Assembly: GCA_964565795.1 (NCBI GenBank)
Contig: CAZMGC010000002.1
Coordinates: forward strand, 1 to 57,853
DNA: 57,853 nt
Source of the DNA: an uncultured Gammaproteobacteria bacterium
Lineage (GTDB): Bacteria > Patescibacteriota > Microgenomatia > Levybacterales > UBA12049
Reading direction: 5' to 3'
The notes beneath the pieces were generated by a model. That model was not told the DNA's origin. It made no database searches and saw only the letters and a list, made by a program, of their open reading frames with translations. Below are positions 1,853-25,743 of this stretch, one piece after another (within the stretch, counting starts at the first letter, position 1; every line of letters begins with the position of its first letter). Position numbers and translations under genes: made by a program.

Positions 1853-2695
1853 ATGAAATTAGACGGCAAAGCAATTTCCTCTGAAATCCTAGAAATACTA
1901 AAACAGCGTGTCGAACTTCTCAAAAAGAAAAAAATAACCCCTACTATGGCCATAATCCTAATGGGTGACAATGAAGCTTCTAAAATTTACGTGAGACAAA
2001 AAGGACTTAAGGCTGAGGAAATTGGTGCAAAAGTTAAAGTTTTTCCGACTTCACGAGAAACAACGCACGAAGAATTAACCAAATTAATCAAAAAGCTTGA
2101 TAAAAATCCTAAAATTCATGGAATTATTATCCAAAGACCAGCTGGCCCAAATGTAGACGTAGATTCTTTAACTGAGCTTATTTCAGGCATAAAAGAAGTA
2201 GACGGATTTGGAAAACACTCCAAATATCCAGTCCCCGTAGCAGAAGCTTCATTTCTTCTCATAAAAAAAGCTTTTAAAGAAGGCAACCATACAGATAAAT
2301 TTACTAAATGGATCAAAGACCAAAAAATTGCAGTTATAGGAAAAGGGGAGACTGCAGGAAAGCCTATTATCGATCTTTTAAAAAAGCACAAGCTTAAACC
2401 TCAAGTAATTGACTCCAAAACCCCAAATAAAGAAAAAATATTAAAAGAAGCAGACATCATAATTACTGCCGTCGGAAAAACTATTCTTTCCACAAAACAA
2501 TTCAAAAAAGGAGTAATCCTTGTAGGAGTTGGACTATATACTGATGAAAATGGAAAACTAAGAGGGGACTACAATAACTCAGATGTCGAAAACGTGGCAA
2601 GCTTTTACTCGCCTACCCCAGGTGGAGTAGGACCAGTAAATGTAGCATGCCTTATGGAAAATTTAGTTAAAGCCGCCGAAAACTCTACTAAATAA
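1853..2695 (+). CDS. folD: bifunctional methylenetetrahydrofolate dehydrogenase/cyclohydrolase
   Basis: N-terminus MKLDGKAIS...ITPTMAIILMGDNEASKIYVRQK and C-terminal TPGGVGPVNVACLMEN are typical FolD. The ATG directly abuts the gyrA stop. Confidence 0.9.
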   Translation: MKLDGKAISSEILEILKQRVELLKKKKITPTMAIILMGDNEASKIYVRQKGLKAEEIGAKVKVFPTSRETTHEELTKLIKKLDKNPKIHGIIIQRPAGPNVDVDSLTELISGIKEVDGFGKHSKYPVPVAEASFLLIKKAFKEGNHTDKFTKWIKDQKIAVIGKGETAGKPIIDLLKKHKLKPQVIDSKTPNKEKILKEADIIITAVGKTILSTKQFKKGVILVGVGLYTDENGKLRGDYNNSDVENVASFYSPTPGGVGPVNVACLMENLVKAAENSTK

Positions 2696-2750
2696 TCTTG
2701 TAGTTAAAGCTCTAAATCAAACAAATATTACTACGGCAATCTAATCTTCG

Positions 2751-2780
2751 TTGACTTATTAACTTATAGTGTGTTAAAAT
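2751..2780 (+). promoter_or_regulatory. sigma70-type promoter, -10 close to start codon
   Basis: TTGACT (2751-2756), 18-nt spacer with TGn, TAAAAT (2775-2780), then 9 nt to ATG 2790. Confidence 0.55.
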
Positions 2781-2789
2781 CCCCGCACA

Positions 2790-3239
2790 ATGAATAATAA
2801 TGAAAATATTGAACTTAATTATTGGGGAGAAGGTTTTCAAAATATCTACACAAAACCTGATCCAAATAAAAGAACCATAAAGCAGAAGCTCGCAATCGTT
2901 ATTTCATTTATATCAGTTCTCGCTATTTTACCCACAACAATTTTTGCGATTACAAATTTTAATCCTGTTAATGACCAAAAACTTACGGCAAGAGTAACTA
3001 ATTTTGAACCAACGCAAGCAGTAAGCGAAATACCAACTCCTACTACAACACCACGAGTTAAGGACGTAGTTGTTAAAGGAATCGAATCTAATAAAGTAAA
3101 AGTTATTAATAATGATAGCTATTGGAAAATATCTAAAAGAACTTGCGGAACTGGTAAATATTATCTTTCGATAAAAGAAAAGAATGATAATAAAGCGCTT
3201 TATAAAGACGACTTTGTAATCGTAGATTGCAGTCTATAG
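2790..3239 (+). CDS. hypothetical membrane-anchored protein with LysM-like C-terminal segment
   Basis: One hydrophobic helix (LAIVISFISVLAILPTTIFAI). The C-terminus SYWKISKRTCGTGKYYLSIKEKN resembles LysM. No closer family recognised. Confidence 0.6.
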   Translation: MNNNENIELNYWGEGFQNIYTKPDPNKRTIKQKLAIVISFISVLAILPTTIFAITNFNPVNDQKLTARVTNFEPTQAVSEIPTPTTTPRVKDVVVKGIESNKVKVINNDSYWKISKRTCGTGKYYLSIKEKNDNKALYKDDFVIVDCSL

Positions 3240-15744: not shown

Positions 15745-15827
15745 GCCGAGGTGGCGGAATGGTATACGCGGTAGTCTCAAAAACTACTGGTCGCAAGACC
15801 TTGAGAGTTCGAGTCTCTCCCCCGGTA
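15745..15827 (+). tRNA. tRNA-Leu (anticodon CAA), type II with long variable arm; no encoded CCA
   Basis: Folded by hand. Acceptor is GCCGAGG/CCCCGGT, with one A5xC68 mismatch and G1.U72. The D stem has 3 bp. The anticodon stem is GTAGT/ACTAC with loop CTCAAAA. The variable hairpin is GGTC-GCAA-GACC. The T arm is GAGAG-TTCGAGT-CTCTC and the discriminator is A. It closely resembles E. coli tRNA-Leu. Confidence 0.9.
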
Positions 15828-20634: not shown

Positions 20635-21639
20635 ATGTTAGATGAACTTAAAAAAGATCTTTCTTCATTAAAACTCCTAATTACCCTGGGAACAATTGCA
20701 GTTGGAATTTATTTATTTGAATACGTAGTTAAATTTTTAAGGGACTTTTCGGACATAATAATAATTCTATTTTTCGGTTGGCTTGTGAGCTTCATACTGG
20801 AACCTTTTGTAGATATTTTTACCAATTATTTAAAAGTTCCAAGAATTATTTCTACAGTTATTGTCTTTGTTTTAGCGGCAATTTTAATCGGGTTAACTTT
20901 CATAGTCTTTATTCCAGATCTTGCAATTCAATTTAAAACTCTTGAACAATTACTTCCCACTTTTAAAGAAAGCGCGCCACCAGTTGTAGCTGATGGAATC
21001 GATAATTTTACTAAATCTATTGGAAGCTATACGAACATTATTCCTTCAGTTACACAGTTTCTGGTTAATTTAGTCACAATTCTTATACTGTCATTTTATT
21101 TAGTGATTGATAAAGACAATTTAAATCGAAGAATGTTTGCGCTAACCCCACGAAAATATCACGATGAAATGAGATTTGTGCAAAGGGTTATCGACCAGTC
21201 ATTTGCCTCATTCGTAAGAATTCAAATTTTATGGGGAGTAATTGGCGGAATTATTACCTGGATAATTCTTACAATTTTTGGAATTAATTTTGCTGGGTCA
21301 ACATCACTAATTGCAGGAATTTTAACTGCCATCCCAGTAATTGGCCCGATAATAGGAGTTATCCCTCCCCTATTGGTAGCTCTTGTTGAAAGACCAGATC
21401 AAGCGTTGTTAATATTCTTAATTATTTTTATAATTCAACAATTCATATTTAATGCTATTGGACCAAAAATAATTGGAAGTGCATTTAGCATAAATCCTGT
21501 AATTGTTATCCTCTCCCTATTAATAGGCATTAAGGTGGCAGGTGCAACTGGAGCAGTTTTTGCAATTCCAATTGCAAGCATAATCATTATAGTTGGTCGC
21601 GAATTTTATAATTTTCATTTCAAAGAAAGAGAAGATTAA
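20635..21639 (+). CDS. AI-2E (PerM) family transporter
   Basis: Polytopic protein with a C-terminal GATGAVFAIPIAS block typical of the AI-2E family. Confidence 0.75.
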   Translation: MLDELKKDLSSLKLLITLGTIAVGIYLFEYVVKFLRDFSDIIIILFFGWLVSFILEPFVDIFTNYLKVPRIISTVIVFVLAAILIGLTFIVFIPDLAIQFKTLEQLLPTFKESAPPVVADGIDNFTKSIGSYTNIIPSVTQFLVNLVTILILSFYLVIDKDNLNRRMFALTPRKYHDEMRFVQRVIDQSFASFVRIQILWGVIGGIITWIILTIFGINFAGSTSLIAGILTAIPVIGPIIGVIPPLLVALVERPDQALLIFLIIFIIQQFIFNAIGPKIIGSAFSINPVIVILSLLIGIKVAGATGAVFAIPIASIIIIVGREFYNFHFKERED

Positions 21640-21649
21640 TACTATGAGC

Positions 21650-21678
21650 TTGACAAAGAAAATACAATATGCCACAAT
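21650..21678 (+). promoter_or_regulatory. sigma70-type promoter of a non-coding leader
   Basis: TTGACA, 17 nt ending in TGc, CACAAT. It starts 11 nt after the upstream stop. Confidence 0.45.
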
Positions 21679-21684
21679 ACATTT

Positions 21685-21802
21685 AATGAAAAACGGATTA
21701 AACACATCATATTGGTATCATGTTCGTCTGAACGGCGGATGTGATTTTCGTGTTTAAAAATTAAACAAAAAGAAATCATGACCGCCGAAAGGCGGTTTTT
21801 TT
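21685..21802 (+). ncRNA. candidate cis-regulatory leader (terminator/antiterminator) or small RNA, about 118 nt
   Basis: No ORF. Stems are CACATC/GATGTG (21703-08/21738-43) and GTTC/GAAC (21722-33). CGGCGG (21733-38) can pair with the terminator 5' arm CCGCCG (21782-87). Confidence 0.35.
21781..21802 (+). terminator. rho-independent terminator
   Basis: ACCGCC-GAAA-GGCGGT followed by a T7 run. Confidence 0.8.
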
Positions 21803-21830
21803 ATGCTTTAAAAAAGCATGTAAACAGAAT

Positions 21831-22910
21831 ATGAAAAATCAAAATAAACAACAAAGAGTAATTTGGATGATGGATGAAACAATCGCTAATGCGCATCCAA
21901 TAAATTGGGGAAGAGTTAGAGAGCTTGAGGCGAGTCTAGTTGCTGCTATCGGGAGCCCTGATTTTAATCATGTTATTGCTGATCCTATACCTTTACTTAG
22001 AAATTTATCTAGAGGACTTAAGAATGAGGATTTTAGTTCAGTAATTGATTTAACTGGATGGATGACCCCTGCATTGCAGGAATTATTCCCTCAAATACCT
22101 GTAGACAACAGTTTTTCGTTAAGTAGAGTGAGGGTTGTTTCTTCTCCAGGTCTCGAAACGACAGGATATAAGGTAAGTCTTTTTCCAGAAGAAGTTGAAG
22201 ATCTTCGTGAAAGATTGGATTTAGAAAAACCTCTTATAGTGGATGATGTGAGTTTTAGTGGTTGGACAAGTAAAAAAACCATGGATATTTTGGGAATAAA
22301 TCCAGCTTCCGCTACTCATGCATTTCTTTTAACAAACGATGGAGATTTGGGAAATAATCCAGGCGCAGTCGGTCTTCTCCAGGGAGTGGGAGGAAGAGTA
22401 ATATCTGGTGGAACAATTACTACTCCTCAAGATGATGGATGGCACCTAAAGGATTTGCATCAAAATCCAAATCTTTCCGAGTCATTTGTTCTTTCAATGT
22501 TATTTCAGGAAATTGTAGGAAGTGACGGAATGGATTCGCAGTCCGCTAGAGATTTTTTCAGAAGAAGTACGGTAATGAGAATTATATTTCCTGATCATCT
22601 TACGTCTGATCAAATAAGAAGACTTATGAATGAGGGAAGATTTATCACAAAAGATGGAAATCCTCCAGACGGAAATGAAATACATGCAAGAAATCCATTC
22701 CTATGGGCAAGCCCATATTTTCAAGCGCACGTCGACATGGCAAAAGTTATTGCAAATAACGAGACAGTCATAAAAACATTGGGAGAGCTAAGAAGTTTGA
22801 CGTCTGATTCTCAAGGAAGAGATGAAGCAAGTCTTGAACTTCAAAGAGTAGTGAGAAGTGAAATCGCAGAACCCGTAGAGGGAAATTTAGGTAGAAGGGA
22901 AAGATTATGA
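21831..22910 (+). CDS. phosphoribosyltransferase-like protein (359 aa, atypical architecture)
   Basis: The PRPP-binding-type motif EKPLIVDDVSFSGWTSKKT is present. The rest is not assignable to a known PRT subfamily. Confidence 0.6.
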   Translation: MKNQNKQQRVIWMMDETIANAHPINWGRVRELEASLVAAIGSPDFNHVIADPIPLLRNLSRGLKNEDFSSVIDLTGWMTPALQELFPQIPVDNSFSLSRVRVVSSPGLETTGYKVSLFPEEVEDLRERLDLEKPLIVDDVSFSGWTSKKTMDILGINPASATHAFLLTNDGDLGNNPGAVGLLQGVGGRVISGGTITTPQDDGWHLKDLHQNPNLSESFVLSMLFQEIVGSDGMDSQSARDFFRRSTVMRIIFPDHLTSDQIRRLMNEGRFITKDGNPPDGNEIHARNPFLWASPYFQAHVDMAKVIANNETVIKTLGELRSLTSDSQGRDEASLELQRVVRSEIAEPVEGNLGRRERL

Positions 22911-23572
22911 ATGAACATAAAATAATTTTTGATATGGATGGAACTCTGTACCACCTAGACAAAACAAAAGGACAAACTTTTGGACAATCTAGGCTTAGGA
23001 GAGAAATTCACGCAAATGTAATTCATTTTTTTGGCGAAAAACTTTCGCTTAGCCCCACGGACTCTGAGCGGGAACACGACAGAATATCTGAAGAATTTAA
23101 AGGGGAAGTAAGTATTGGCGTGGAAAATGAACTAGGGATCTCAAGATCAGAATATTTTGCGGCGACTTGGGATCTTATGCCTGAAGAATATGTTGAACCA
23201 GATCCTGGTCTTCGTGGAGAGCTTGAAGACTTAAGAGGAAGAATCGCAGTTCTTACCGCAGCCCCTAGAATTTGGGCTGCGCGAGTTCTATCTTTTCTAG
23301 ACATAGAAGATTTATTTGATGGGAAAATTTTTACTGGTGAACCAAACTTAAGAAAACCAGATCCTAATGTTTTTAGGATGGTTGCCATGAGTCTTGACGC
23401 ACAACCAGAAAATGTTTTCTCTATTGGAGACCAGGAACATACGGATATAGTTCCAGCAAAAAAAATAGGAATGAAAGCTGTAAAGATTGGTCCTGGGGAA
23501 ACAGTTGCCGATTTTCAGGCAGAAGATGTAAAACAAGCTCTGGGAATTTTAAGAAGAGGAGGATTTATATGA
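22907..23572 (+). CDS. HAD-superfamily phosphatase (nucleotidase-like)
   Basis: Motif I IIFDMDGTLY, motif II VLTAAP, and motif IV SIGDQEHTD are present. The ATGA start overlaps the upstream stop. Confidence 0.8.
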   Translation: MNEHKIIFDMDGTLYHLDKTKGQTFGQSRLRREIHANVIHFFGEKLSLSPTDSEREHDRISEEFKGEVSIGVENELGISRSEYFAATWDLMPEEYVEPDPGLRGELEDLRGRIAVLTAAPRIWAARVLSFLDIEDLFDGKIFTGEPNLRKPDPNVFRMVAMSLDAQPENVFSIGDQEHTDIVPAKKIGMKAVKIGPGETVADFQAEDVKQALGILRRGGFI

Positions 23573-24486
23573 AAAAAATAATTATTGATACAGATCCAGG
23601 ACAGGATGATGCAATGGCTATAATGTTAGCCATTAAAAGTCGTGCTTTTGAAATACAAGCTATTACTACAGTTTGTGGAAATTCAACTGTAAAAAACACT
23701 ACGCGAAACGCTAGATTTATTCTTGATGCATTAGGACGAAGTGAAATCCCTCTATACTCAGGAGAAGCAAAACCTTTAAAGCGTCCTTTAATTCAGGCAG
23801 TTGTACATGGGAAAAGCGGACTTGAGGGTATTGATCCAACAAATAATCCAGTGCTTACTGGAAATGCTCCGGATAAGATAATTTCATTTGTTAAATCAAA
23901 TCCCGGAAAAATTACAATCGTTACCTTGGGTCCTTTAACAAACATAGCCAAGGCAATTTTAATAGATAAAATAACAATGAAAAAAGTAAAGGAACTGGTA
24001 ATTATGGGAGGAGCTATTAATGTAGCTGGAAATAAGAATAGAGTGGCAGAGTTTAATATCTTTGTTGATCCTGATGCTGCTGATATTGTATTTAATTTTC
24101 CTATTAAAAAAACTATTGTCCCACTAGATGCATGTAATAATGTGCGATTTCAAATAAGAGATTTTATGAAAATTAAAAACAATAGGCTACGCAATTTATT
24201 AGTTAATATGAATAAACCCTATATCAAAAACCTTGAAAAAGATGCAGGCATTAAAGCTGCTCTAATGTATGACCCATTAACCATATTTTACTTGTTAGAA
24301 AAAGATGCTTGCCTCACCTTTAATGATAACGTTCAAATAGAAACAGTTGGCGGAATAACAAGGGGCATGACGGTCGTTGATAAACGAAAAATTAAGGACG
24401 GACTTATACCTAACACAACAATAGTTAAATACATAAATGAAAAGAAGTTTCGCAAATGTTTCTTAGATACCCTAAACAATGAATAA
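23569..24486 (+). CDS. nucleoside hydrolase (IUNH family)
   Basis: The N-terminal fingerprint IIIDTDPGQDDAMAIMLA is present. The start overlaps the upstream stop. Confidence 0.88.
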   Translation: MKKIIIDTDPGQDDAMAIMLAIKSRAFEIQAITTVCGNSTVKNTTRNARFILDALGRSEIPLYSGEAKPLKRPLIQAVVHGKSGLEGIDPTNNPVLTGNAPDKIISFVKSNPGKITIVTLGPLTNIAKAILIDKITMKKVKELVIMGGAINVAGNKNRVAEFNIFVDPDAADIVFNFPIKKTIVPLDACNNVRFQIRDFMKIKNNRLRNLLVNMNKPYIKNLEKDAGIKAALMYDPLTIFYLLEKDACLTFNDNVQIETVGGITRGMTVVDKRKIKDGLIPNTTIVKYINEKKFRKCFLDTLNNE

Positions 24487-24519: not shown

Positions 24520-24528
24520 TGCTATTAT
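24520..24528 (+). promoter_or_regulatory. extended -10 element 6 nt upstream of hisS ATG
   Basis: TGcTATTAT, then TAATCT, then ATG 24535. No SD. Confidence 0.45.
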
Positions 24529-24534
24529 TAATCT

Positions 24535-25743
24535 ATGAAAGTTGAACCCAGAACACTAAAAGGATTTAGAGATTTCTTGCCTAAAGAAGCAAGAAAACGC
24601 TCATACGTTTTAAACATCTTAAAAGAGGTGTTTGAGTCCTATGGCTTTGAACCACTTGAAACTCCAGCACTTGAATACGACGACATTTTATCCGGAAAAT
24701 ATGGGGAAGAAGGAGATAAATTAATGTATAAATTCGTGGACAACGGCGATAGAAAAGTTGCCATGCGGTATGACCAAACAGTTCCTCTTGCGAGAGTCAT
24801 AGCTCAGTATCAAAACGACCTCCCTCTTCCATTTAAACGCTATCAGATTCAAAATGTCTATCGCGCAGAAAACACACAAAAAGGTAGATTTAGAGAATTT
24901 CTGCAAGTAGATATTGACACAGTAGGCTCCACTTCCCTTTTAGCTGATGCGGAAATAATTTCTATCGCAATAAAATGTTTTGAAAAATTAGGATTTAAAA
25001 ATTTTAAAGCAGAAATAAATGACAGAAGAATTTTTCAAGAACTTATCAAAAATAAATTGTTTGATGGAAGTTCGCGTATATTAGGTTTACGAGCAATTGA
25101 TAAACTTGGAAAAATTGGTTAAGAAGGCGTATTAGAAGAACTAGGAAAGGCGGGGGTAGATAAAAACCAAAGAAAATTATTATTAAACACCATAAAAAAT
25201 CTTGTACCAGACAAAGATTTTTCAAATATTTTTAACTTTCTAAAAGATCAGGGCATAAATGAAAATAATTTTGAATTTAACCCTACACTTGCACGTGGAC
25301 TCGATTACTATACAAGTGCAATCTTTGAATTAGTTTGTGAAGATTATCCAGCTGGATCACTTGGCGGTGGTGGAAGATATGATAATTTAATTGGAATGTT
25401 TGCGAATCAAACAATACCTGCCGTGGGATTTGCTTTTGGTTTTGACAGAGTCATGGAAGCGATGACAGAACTCGGTCTCTTCCCTACTGATTTAGAAGAA
25501 GCAAAAGTTTTAGTCACGAACACAAATCCCAGCTCACCAAAAATCGCAAATGATTTAAGAGATAGAGGAATCAAAACAGAACTATACATCGATGAAAAAG
25601 ATTTAGATAAACAGCTTAAATATGCTGACAAAAAACAGATACCGTATGTTTTAATAGTAGAAGAAACTCTTACTTTAAAGAATATGAAAACTGGAGAAAA
25701 AAAAGAAATTACCTTAGATCAACTGTCCGATGCAATTAGGTAA
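24535..25743 (+). pseudogene. hisS: histidine--tRNA ligase interrupted by a single in-frame TAA (25120-25122)
   Basis: ORFs 24535-25122 and 25396-25743 are in the same frame, and 25123-25395 is open. The continuous translation is ...AIDKLGKIG*EGVLEELGKAGV...LARGLDYYTSAIFEL...GGGGRYDNLIG...AVGFAFGFDRV. This covers class II motifs 1-3 and the anticodon-binding domain. Confidence 0.9.

Follow-up and report, generated by a model that had tools for sequence, protein, structure and literature searches.

The window analysed here is a 57,853-nt stretch of DNA (contig CAZMGC010000002.1 of assembly GCA_964565795.1) from an uncultured bacterium placed by GTDB in the Levybacterales (Patescibacteriota), with a source genome of 1.10 Mb in 94 contigs that is ~96% complete. 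Between an AI-2E transporter gene and a gene cluster that includes hisS, encoding histidyl-tRNA synthetase, it contains a short leader with a promoter, a small open reading frame (ORF), competing RNA helices and an intrinsic terminator. We consider it likely, on sequence grounds, that this leader regulates transcription by ribosome-mediated attenuation through a leader peptide, as in trp, his and pheST, and that it responds to histidine and precedes the hisS operon. The elements of the leader are listed below with the evidence for each.

21650..21655, + strand: -35 box TTGACA (sequence, promoter consensus scan, kept in related leaders)
21670..21678, + strand: extended -10 box TGc-CACAAT (consensus scan; TG extension kept in the genus alignment)
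21686..21757, + strand: leader ORF MKNGLNTSYWYHVRLNGGCDFRV, 23 codons and TAA, putatively translated (sequence, alignment of relatives)
21710..21721, + strand: candidate regulatory codons TAT TGG TAT CAT (Y W Y H), with the His codon at 21719-21721
21717..21728, + strand: region 1 ATCATGTTCGTC, 5′ arm of the anti-antiterminator hairpin (12-bp stem, covariation)
21734..21745, + strand: region 2 GGCGGATGTGAT, alternative partner of region 1 or region 3 (stem listing, minimum free energy fold, swap control, covariation)
21773..21787, + strand: region 3 AAATCATGACCGCCG, 3′ partner in the antiterminator, includes the terminator 5′ arm (minimum free energy fold, swap control)
21780..21802, + strand: intrinsic terminator, stem 21780-86 with 21791-97, GAAA loop, U7 (consensus scan, covariation alignment)
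21803..21819, + strand: 7-bp hairpin ATGCTTT/AAAGCAT 3′ of the terminator (sequence; not conserved)

Promoter, leader ORF and terminator

The promoter, the terminator, the additional hairpin and the ATG at 21831 had been described in an earlier note on this DNA, and all of them were found in the sequence where that note had placed them. The two promoter boxes are separated by a 17-nt spacer ending in TGc, with the -10 hexamer CACAAT at 21673-78, and in the consensus scan the promoter scores 10 of 12 consensus matches with the TG present. Promoter-like sites are not enriched in the 5-kb region (17, versus 17.8 expected from shuffles, in DNA of 35.8% GC); such a match is no commoner than in shuffled DNA, so the promoter call rests on conservation and not on the match. 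Terminator-like sites are enriched in the 5-kb region (8 versus 2.9 expected). The terminator of the leader reads GACCGCC-GAAA-GGCGGTT at 21780-97, followed by a run of seven T up to 21802, and thereby lies between the leader ORF and the structural genes, as in known attenuators; no other + strand terminator-like site was listed by the consensus scan between 21802 and 25500. Among the aligned relatives, the 7-bp hairpin at 21803-21819 recurs only in genome G003 (GTGCTGT...ACAGCAT), and it explains a sub-threshold Rfam match to AaHKsRNA82.

The leader had previously been described as free of ORFs, which is incorrect, as an ORF of 23 codons runs from the ATG at 21686 to the TAA at 21755-57 and is kept in relatives. 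Since its ATG is located only 7 nt 3′ of the -10 box, the leader mRNA is probably leaderless, with a predicted transcription start at or next to this ATG. In 25 of 39 related leaders, the start codon is preceded at a distance of 5-9 nt by the end of a -10-like hexamer, mostly TG-extended, and most of these 25 also carry a perfect or near-perfect TTGACA at 16-18 nt spacing. The alignment of leaders from the genus keeps TTGACA-N17-TGnGAnAAT, a start codon (ATG, GTG or TTG) 6-7 nt later, and the short ORF.

Alignments showed that the peptides of related leaders are variable save for His codons at one position, with ..LNHYHVR.., ..NNHHVR.. and ..NHSHHVR.. within the genus, and ..LNHWYH.., ..LNHHSTTA, ..LNHYHYSA, ..NHHHTPL.. 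and ..SHNH.. elsewhere. All leaders linked to hisS or to other his genes have one to three His codons at this one site, which adjoins or lies within region 1; the probability of finding at least two His in 22 residues is 0.043 at the usage found in this genome. The window leader has a single His codon, in the context S-Y-W-Y-H, as do the leaders of G005, G014 and G002. A putatively translated leader ORF with codons cognate to the regulated genes, a hallmark of attenuators, is consequently present by sequence. Region 2 (GGCGGnTGTGATTTT) is conserved at the nucleotide level, yet its translation is GGCDF, AAVIF or GGVIF depending on the lineage, and in some genera the leader stop codon precedes region 2. 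Conservation of the same nucleotides across different reading frames argues for selection on the RNA rather than on the C-terminus of the peptide.

Conservation of the leader and linkage to hisS

Of 15 genomes from the same genus, 8 carry the 196-nt leader region at 72-86% identity, and its core was also found in six other genera. Up to 8 kb downstream of 15 leader loci was searched using both halves of the window HisS, and hisS was present on the same strand, 0 to ~4.7 kb downstream, in 13 of the 15, with an interval of 0-4 co-directional and closely spaced genes. The genes in this interval vary between genomes and encode an Asp/Glu racemase, M15 and M19 dipeptidases, a class I/II aminotransferase, a short HisG, GNAT, NYN, DUF6282 and HAD proteins, and a nucleoside hydrolase. 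The two exceptions are L029, where the contig ends after 1.9 kb, and L038, an Arg-type second copy in G003. Another 18 His-type leaders of the order were followed by hisS in seven cases and by hisG or hisD in three (within 1.5 kb), with hisI also found in one of the seven; at the remaining 8 of the 18 loci the sequence stops before any such gene. A covariance model, R1, made from 15 leaders (alignment A1) matched at E ≤ 0.01 in 90 of 151 genomes and 48 of 73 genera of the order, often with multiple copies per genome. Runs of N interrupt loci L028 and L031.

The position of the hairpin, 140 nt past the transporter stop and on the same strand, would also be expected if it merely terminated the AI-2E transporter transcript and the rest were a chance arrangement, and the promoter match alone is not above chance. 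We regard this explanation as extremely unlikely, since the AI-2E gene is the upstream neighbour only within the genus, whereas in other genera the same element follows a different gene or a gene on the opposite strand, and since the promoter boxes are kept and it is the whole 150-nt unit that is conserved, not the hairpin alone. The downstream link persists while the upstream neighbour changes, which argues for assigning the element to the genes that follow it rather than to the transporter.

Alternative helices and covariation

The 146-nt RNA is predicted to fold with -39.2 kcal/mol (z = -4.64), and none of 200 shuffled sequences folds as well. In its minimum free energy (MFE) fold, a long helix pairs 21733-48 with 21773-87 and excludes the terminator. 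The conserved, covarying hairpin pairs 21717-28 with 21734-45 (helix 1:2), and was also listed as a 12-pair stem in the site scan; the His codon at 21719-21 falls within its 5′ arm, in line with the upstream hairpin overlapping the regulatory codons in attenuators. The antiterminator (region 2 with region 3, 2:3) and the terminator (3:4) are mutually exclusive on thermodynamic and comparative grounds. The earlier note had pointed out that CGGCGG at 21733-38 is complementary to CCGCCG at 21782-87 and could form an antiterminator, which is supported by the MFE fold and by the swap control described below. It had also proposed a CACATC/GATGTG helix enclosing a GTTC/GAAC hairpin; both are present in the window as it described, but neither is kept in relatives.

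For the covariation analysis, 39 leaders were aligned to R1 (alignment A2); L031 was excluded from the RNA alignments owing to a run of N inside its terminator loop. Helix 1:2 and the terminator together have standard pairs in 91% of the alignment cells, a share that falls to 34-52% on sliding the 3′ partners by 1-3 columns, and both sides change in 10 of the 17 pairs. Compensatory cells number 36, versus 10.4 ± 2.7 in shuffled alignments, and none of 500 shuffles reached 36. The terminator helix is paired in 100% of the cells in the 39 aligned leaders.

The effect of a ribosome on the fold was modelled, by blocking nucleotides, for the 35 leaders that contain one or more His codons; a further leader was left out, with no terminator found, and three Arg-type leaders had no stall model. 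The complete terminator is predicted in the free RNA of 26 of the 35, and in all 35 when the ribosome is placed at the stop codon. When it is stalled at the last His codon the terminator disappears from the MFE fold in 24 of the 35, the window leader included.

Paralogous leaders with exchanged codons

L038, the second copy in G003, combines this scaffold with the peptide MSNLMKLNSRRDTG... (..NSRRD..), is located before argH and argG, and carries AGA AGA at the site of the His codons in hisS leaders. Within the window's own genome, R1 gave nine matches at E ≤ 1, of which the ninth (E = 0.97) is unconvincing. Besides the His copy, seven paralogous attenuators were found by R1 search outside the window, on contigs C3, C8 and C38, with the leaders and downstream genes given here.

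C3, 40693-40796(-) and 55130-55256(+): paralogous attenuators
C8, 35857-35979(-), 9280-9390(-) and 9912-10029(-): paralogous attenuators
C38, 7118-7240(-) and 1318-1428(-): paralogous attenuators
Lys leader MFEVNVSKKNKKNSY (KKNKKN): followed by a 137-aa orphan and class I lysS
Trp leader MFKFDFINLNWSS... (W): followed by a 142-aa orphan and trpS
Phe leader MINKLNFGFYFTLLSGR (FGFYF): followed by an 83-aa orphan and pheS
Ile-rich, Thr/Phe-rich and Leu/Ile/Val-rich leaders: followed by small orphans
C3:40238-40648(-), C8:35421-35849(-), C38:1021-1272(-) and C8:8830-9231(-): orphans behind the Lys, Trp, Phe and Ile attenuators

In G166, a leader with YYY is followed by a 320-aa protein and tyrS, and all five synthetases of this codon-to-gene set exceed the NCBIfam cut-offs. 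Most of the seven paralogues start with ATGTTTAGA (MFR) and have terminators of the CCTCC/GGAGG type, and the genes behind them have strong AGGAGGTGA ribosome-binding sites, unlike the His copy. The four orphans behind the Lys, Trp, Phe and Ile attenuators (83-142 aa) have no Pfam family, with the Lys, Trp and Phe ones sitting between the attenuator and the matching synthetase gene. They contain few residues of the cognate amino acid (K 1/137, P = 2e-4; I 4/133, P = 0.012; W 0/142; F 1/83), and in the case of K, I and W, three of the four, the orphan with the lowest count of all seven is the cognate one, a depletion signal that is confounded by all seven being generally poor in K. The Lys-linked 137-aa orphan was not found with this query in 150 other genomes of the order. 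Attenuators of this family also occur in tandem, ~0.6 kb apart with one short gene in between, in L181 (1432-1556 and 2126-2247, with a GNAT gene) and in L185 (1501-1622 and 2174-2299).

Each of the eight copies in this genome has a region 2 core that repeats the 3′ arm of the terminator (GGCGG, GGAGG, GGGAGG or AGGGG) and is located ~47-54 nt from the start codon. When terminator arms were swapped between copies, the His upstream part paired with its own arm at -9.7 kcal/mol versus -2.2 to -6.5 kcal/mol with foreign arms; over all copies the means are -10.1 kcal/mol for matched and -8.3 kcal/mol for mismatched combinations, CCTCC being common to many of the other copies.

A complete unit of promoter, ORF and terminator, together with a promoter-like box directly before hisS, could also represent an independent small gene for a small RNA or 23-aa peptide with no part in regulating the genes downstream, with hisS transcribed from its own promoter. 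Trans-acting RNAs derived from attenuators have been reported in Sinorhizobium (rnTrpL/peTrpL). This reading is unlikely, as, from one family to another, the unit stays in place upstream of hisS or his genes with its orientation unchanged even though a different gene may precede it, the peptide is not conserved beyond the cognate codons, the frame over region 2 differs by lineage, and the mimicry of the terminator 3′ arm by region 2 in all eight paralogues is needed only for a switch.

Searches for known RNA families

At the gathering score, Rfam detected nothing in the whole window other than a tRNA at 15745-15827. Lowering the threshold to E ≤ 10 over 21500-21950 gave only sub-threshold, terminator-driven matches, among which were Trp_leader (19.9 bits, cut-off 41) and Phe_leader (20 bits, cut-off 55), and no riboswitch family (purine, preQ1, ZTP, ykkC, PRPP or others), consistent with the earlier note, which could not match the element to a riboswitch class. 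A scan of genome contigs with a generic DNA pattern (GGCGG followed by the terminator) mostly hit GC-rich genomes and was uninformative.

The earlier note had recognised in the mutually exclusive helices the logic of transcription attenuation, which agrees with our finding of a promoter-leader-terminator unit that belongs to the downstream genes. Its suggestion of a riboswitch for a nucleobase, nucleoside or PRPP ligand, controlling a nucleotide-salvage operon, does not hold up. Mutually exclusive helices with a terminator are present in riboswitches as well, and nucleoside hydrolase or phosphorylase genes are found behind a few related leaders (L029, L175 and L187). The leader nevertheless looks translated, with a conserved ORF in which the key codons change according to the gene that follows, matching argHG, lysS, trpS, pheS and tyrS in the paralogues, and the conserved RNA is a plain two-hairpin scaffold with no junction or pocket-like core. 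With no Rfam match, and hisS and his genes as the conserved partner whereas a homologue of the first downstream gene (ORF4) was found in only one of 60 related genomes, a ligand-binding riboswitch is extremely unlikely. The nucleotide-salvage genes of the window are variable cargo, and the conserved gene, and putative target, is hisS.

Regulation by an antiterminator that depends on a protein or on tRNA (a mini T-box-like or TRAP/HutP-like element, sensing through an RNA-binding regulator or uncharged tRNA-His) would suit the targets, which are synthetase and amino acid genes as in T-box regulons, and true T-boxes above the cut-off do occur in 2 of 41 related genomes. The T-box model (RF00230) matched neither the window nor any other part of the genome (G000), whereas the same search finds T-boxes in relatives and in control genomes; at E ≤ 10 there was no T-box match at the site either, nor a specifier loop, T-box motif or repeated triplet sites. 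The leader is ~115 nt long with a conserved ORF, and it is the codons of this ORF that carry the specificity of the paralogues, which makes such a mechanism very unlikely here.

The hisS gene and the cargo genes

The genes around the leader are as follows; the window has the order leader, ORF4, HAD, nucleoside hydrolase, hisS and EamA, and the first three genes overlap at their ends.

20635-21639: AI-2E transporter gene (PF01594), TAA stop at 21637-39
21831..22910, + strand: ORF4, 359 aa, variable cargo (only 2 Tyr)
22907..23572, + strand: HAD-family hydrolase, cargo, 221 aa (family search)
23569..24486, + strand: nucleoside hydrolase, IU_nuc_hydro family, cargo, 305 aa (family search)
24520..24528, + strand: TGcTATTAT, candidate hisS extended -10 box, 6 nt before the hisS ATG
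24535..25743, + strand: hisS, histidyl-tRNA synthetase, conserved putative target (in-frame TAA at 25120-22)

The window hisS is the sole copy found in the assembly, and the HisS orthologue of G005 exceeds the TIGR00442 cut-off. An in-frame TAA is present at 25120-25122 where the G005 orthologue has GAA (Glu), with the frame intact on both sides, which reflects either a sequencing or consensus error of the metagenome-assembled genome or a real nonsense variant. In most loci a TGnTAT(T/G)AT box is found 6-7 nt before the hisS ATG, with no Shine-Dalgarno sequence (e.g. L027, L031, L033, L034 and L037), so hisS may be transcribed from a separate extended -10 promoter into a leaderless mRNA. In L030 (G002), a 17-codon remnant of the 5′ end of hisS (MKIEPKTLKGFRDFLPR*) lies right after the leader terminator, followed by a NYN-domain gene and a full hisS; the remnant resembles a scar left when a gene was inserted in this interval, in keeping with the idea of a cargo slot discussed below.

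ORF4, which has no recognisable Shine-Dalgarno sequence, had been called phosphoribosyltransferase-like. This could not be confirmed: the protein (P0001) had no Pfam, NCBIfam or PDB match, and the lead from the Atlas is weak (a Pribosyltran cluster, score 0.87, with the family carried by 14% of the members). It contains 2 Tyr where 12 are expected (P = 4e-4). The homologue found among the 60 related genomes, in G020, is a protein of 352 aa with no Tyr, encoded directly behind a T-box above the Rfam cut-off; in a similarity comparison, ORF4 was unlike two other proteins sited behind Tyr-type leaders or T-boxes. T-boxes above the cut-off are located at 2564-2849(-) of L003 (G020) and 2134-2419(-) of L197 (G002). 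Both specifiers read UAC (Tyr) after calibration of the specifier position on the argH-argG T-box of G024 (L198, loop GAAG-AGA-G), and T-boxes and leader-peptide attenuators thus coexist in the order. The nucleoside hydrolase has one His and no Trp in 305 aa, and HisS has neither residue in 401; the low His content of HisS does not discriminate, as 0-2 His were found in all relatives from the Candidate Phyla Radiation (CPR), with or without an upstream match to the model.

Proposed mechanism

The model for this leader builds on the observed sequence elements, their conservation, the covariation of helix 1:2, the codon-gene correspondence and the linkage to hisS, from which we infer where transcription starts, that the ORF is translated, that the ribosome stalls on it and what this does to expression of the operon. 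Transcription would begin at or next to the ATG at 21686, giving a leaderless leader mRNA, of which a ribosome would translate the 23-codon ORF. A shortage of charged tRNA-His would make it stall with CAT 21719-21 in the A site, and stalling at the adjoining Tyr or Trp codons may have the same effect. The stalled ribosome would cover the RNA to ~21731, which is all of region 1, and the freed region 2 (21734-45) would pair with region 3 (21773-87) and block the terminator, allowing RNA polymerase to read into ORF4, HAD, nucleoside hydrolase and hisS. With plentiful charged tRNA-His the ribosome would pass region 2 to reach the stop codon at 21755, and the hairpin at 21780-97 with its U7 tract would terminate transcription. 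Termination by this hairpin is also predicted in the absence of translation, with region 1 pairing with region 2.

Several points weigh against this model. The window leader has one His codon and relatives have two or three, whereas classical attenuators usually have at least two. Fitting alignment A2 to the model biases the pair counts, and the genomes, being related, are not independent of one another. The terminator and the GGCGG core are invariant or nearly so in the His/Arg group and show no covariation there; as a consequence, the support for the 2:3 pairing comes entirely from the comparison of paralogues. The stalled-state fold keeps the terminator in 11 of the 35 leaders, and an R1 match was present within 3 kb upstream at just 5 of 25 named hisS loci of wider relatives. 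The promoter-like box before hisS makes its dependence on read-through no more than putative. Finally, ORF4 and the HAD protein are poor in Tyr and not in His (8 His and 2 Tyr in the 359 aa of ORF4, 6 His and 3 Tyr in the 221 aa of HAD), and the signal may not be histidine alone.

Tyrosine and tryptophan are possibly sensed beside histidine, since ORF4 is Tyr-poor and its G020 homologue is Tyr-free and encoded behind a T-box with a UAC (Tyr) specifier. The thr and ilv operons provide known examples of leaders that sense multiple amino acids. We tentatively suggest, as an idea that is possible rather than probable, that the interval between leader and hisS is a cargo slot which brings newly acquired genes under the control of amino acid starvation, in which the leader codons co-evolve with the cargo, and that the S-Y-W-Y-H leader is a sensor of Tyr/Trp and His. 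Besides ORF4 and its homologue, the low Tyr content of HAD and the low His and Trp content of the nucleoside hydrolase and HisS speak for this idea. Along similar lines, the orphans with few cognate residues behind the other attenuators may represent a class of starvation-expressed proteins that has gone unrecognised.

Implications

The mechanism of the proposed attenuator is textbook, and the element is most likely undescribed in this group of tiny uncultivated bacteria. A literature search with the terms CPR, Patescibacteria, Saccharibacteria and TM7 found no report of leader peptides, attenuation or T-boxes, the names Levybacteria and Microgenomates not being among those searched. Since members of the CPR/Patescibacteria are not cultivated axenically, their gene regulation has hardly been explored. 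If the attenuator functions as proposed, it would imply that these reduced genomes monitor tRNA charging by coupled transcription-translation attenuators rather than by T-boxes, that changes in a few codons are enough to re-target one RNA scaffold, and that the sensor ORF uses leaderless translation. The codons of the leader may also serve as an annotation rule, predicting the amino acid to which downstream genes with unknown function respond. The family further represents a set of ~115-nt natural switches that could be tested in heterologous hosts.

Comparison with known systems

The leader shares with hisL (RF00514) and trpL a short ORF with cognate codons, the 1:2, 2:3 and 3:4 hairpins, and a terminator before the structural genes. 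It has no sequence or covariance-model similarity to hisL, even at E ≤ 10, and whereas hisL has seven consecutive His codons, the element described here has one to three and probably a leaderless start; two regulatory codons suffice in trpL. The targets also differ, being a tRNA synthetase with variable cargo instead of the biosynthetic operons behind hisL and trpL, with leaders of relatives also preceding hisG, hisD and hisI. Classical attenuation before a synthetase gene is established for E. coli pheM-pheST. Attenuators have also been predicted for trpS and leuS of Streptomyces (PMC1262725), and these systems resemble ours in the classical attenuation of a synthetase gene by leader codons cognate to that synthetase. 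The element described here differs from them in its occurrence in the CPR/Patescibacteria, in the use of one scaffold for His, Arg, Lys, Trp, Phe and Tyr, and in the synthetase often being located kilobases downstream behind cargo.

In bacilli, His leader peptides were predicted upstream of a hisS paralogue and of hisZ (Naville and Gautheret 2010, PMC2965389), and the study also argues that sensing systems, either T-box or leader peptide, are exchanged between lineages. The bacillar leaders also combine His-codon leader peptides with terminators before genes of the hisS family. They are reported to regulate paralogues that exist beside a T-box-controlled hisS, whereas the gene found here is the sole hisS in a genome in which no T-box was found; a sequence relation is not expected. 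Leaderless polycysteine short ORFs have been presented as Cys-responsive attenuators in mycobacteria (10.1101/834739), and, as proposed for the leader upstream of hisS, the regulatory short ORF is reported to lie at the 5′ end of a leaderless transcript, with the amino acid sensed through translation. Set beside the mycobacterial ORFs as reported, the Levybacterales element is distinguished by an explicit pair of terminator and antiterminator, another amino acid and another phylum.

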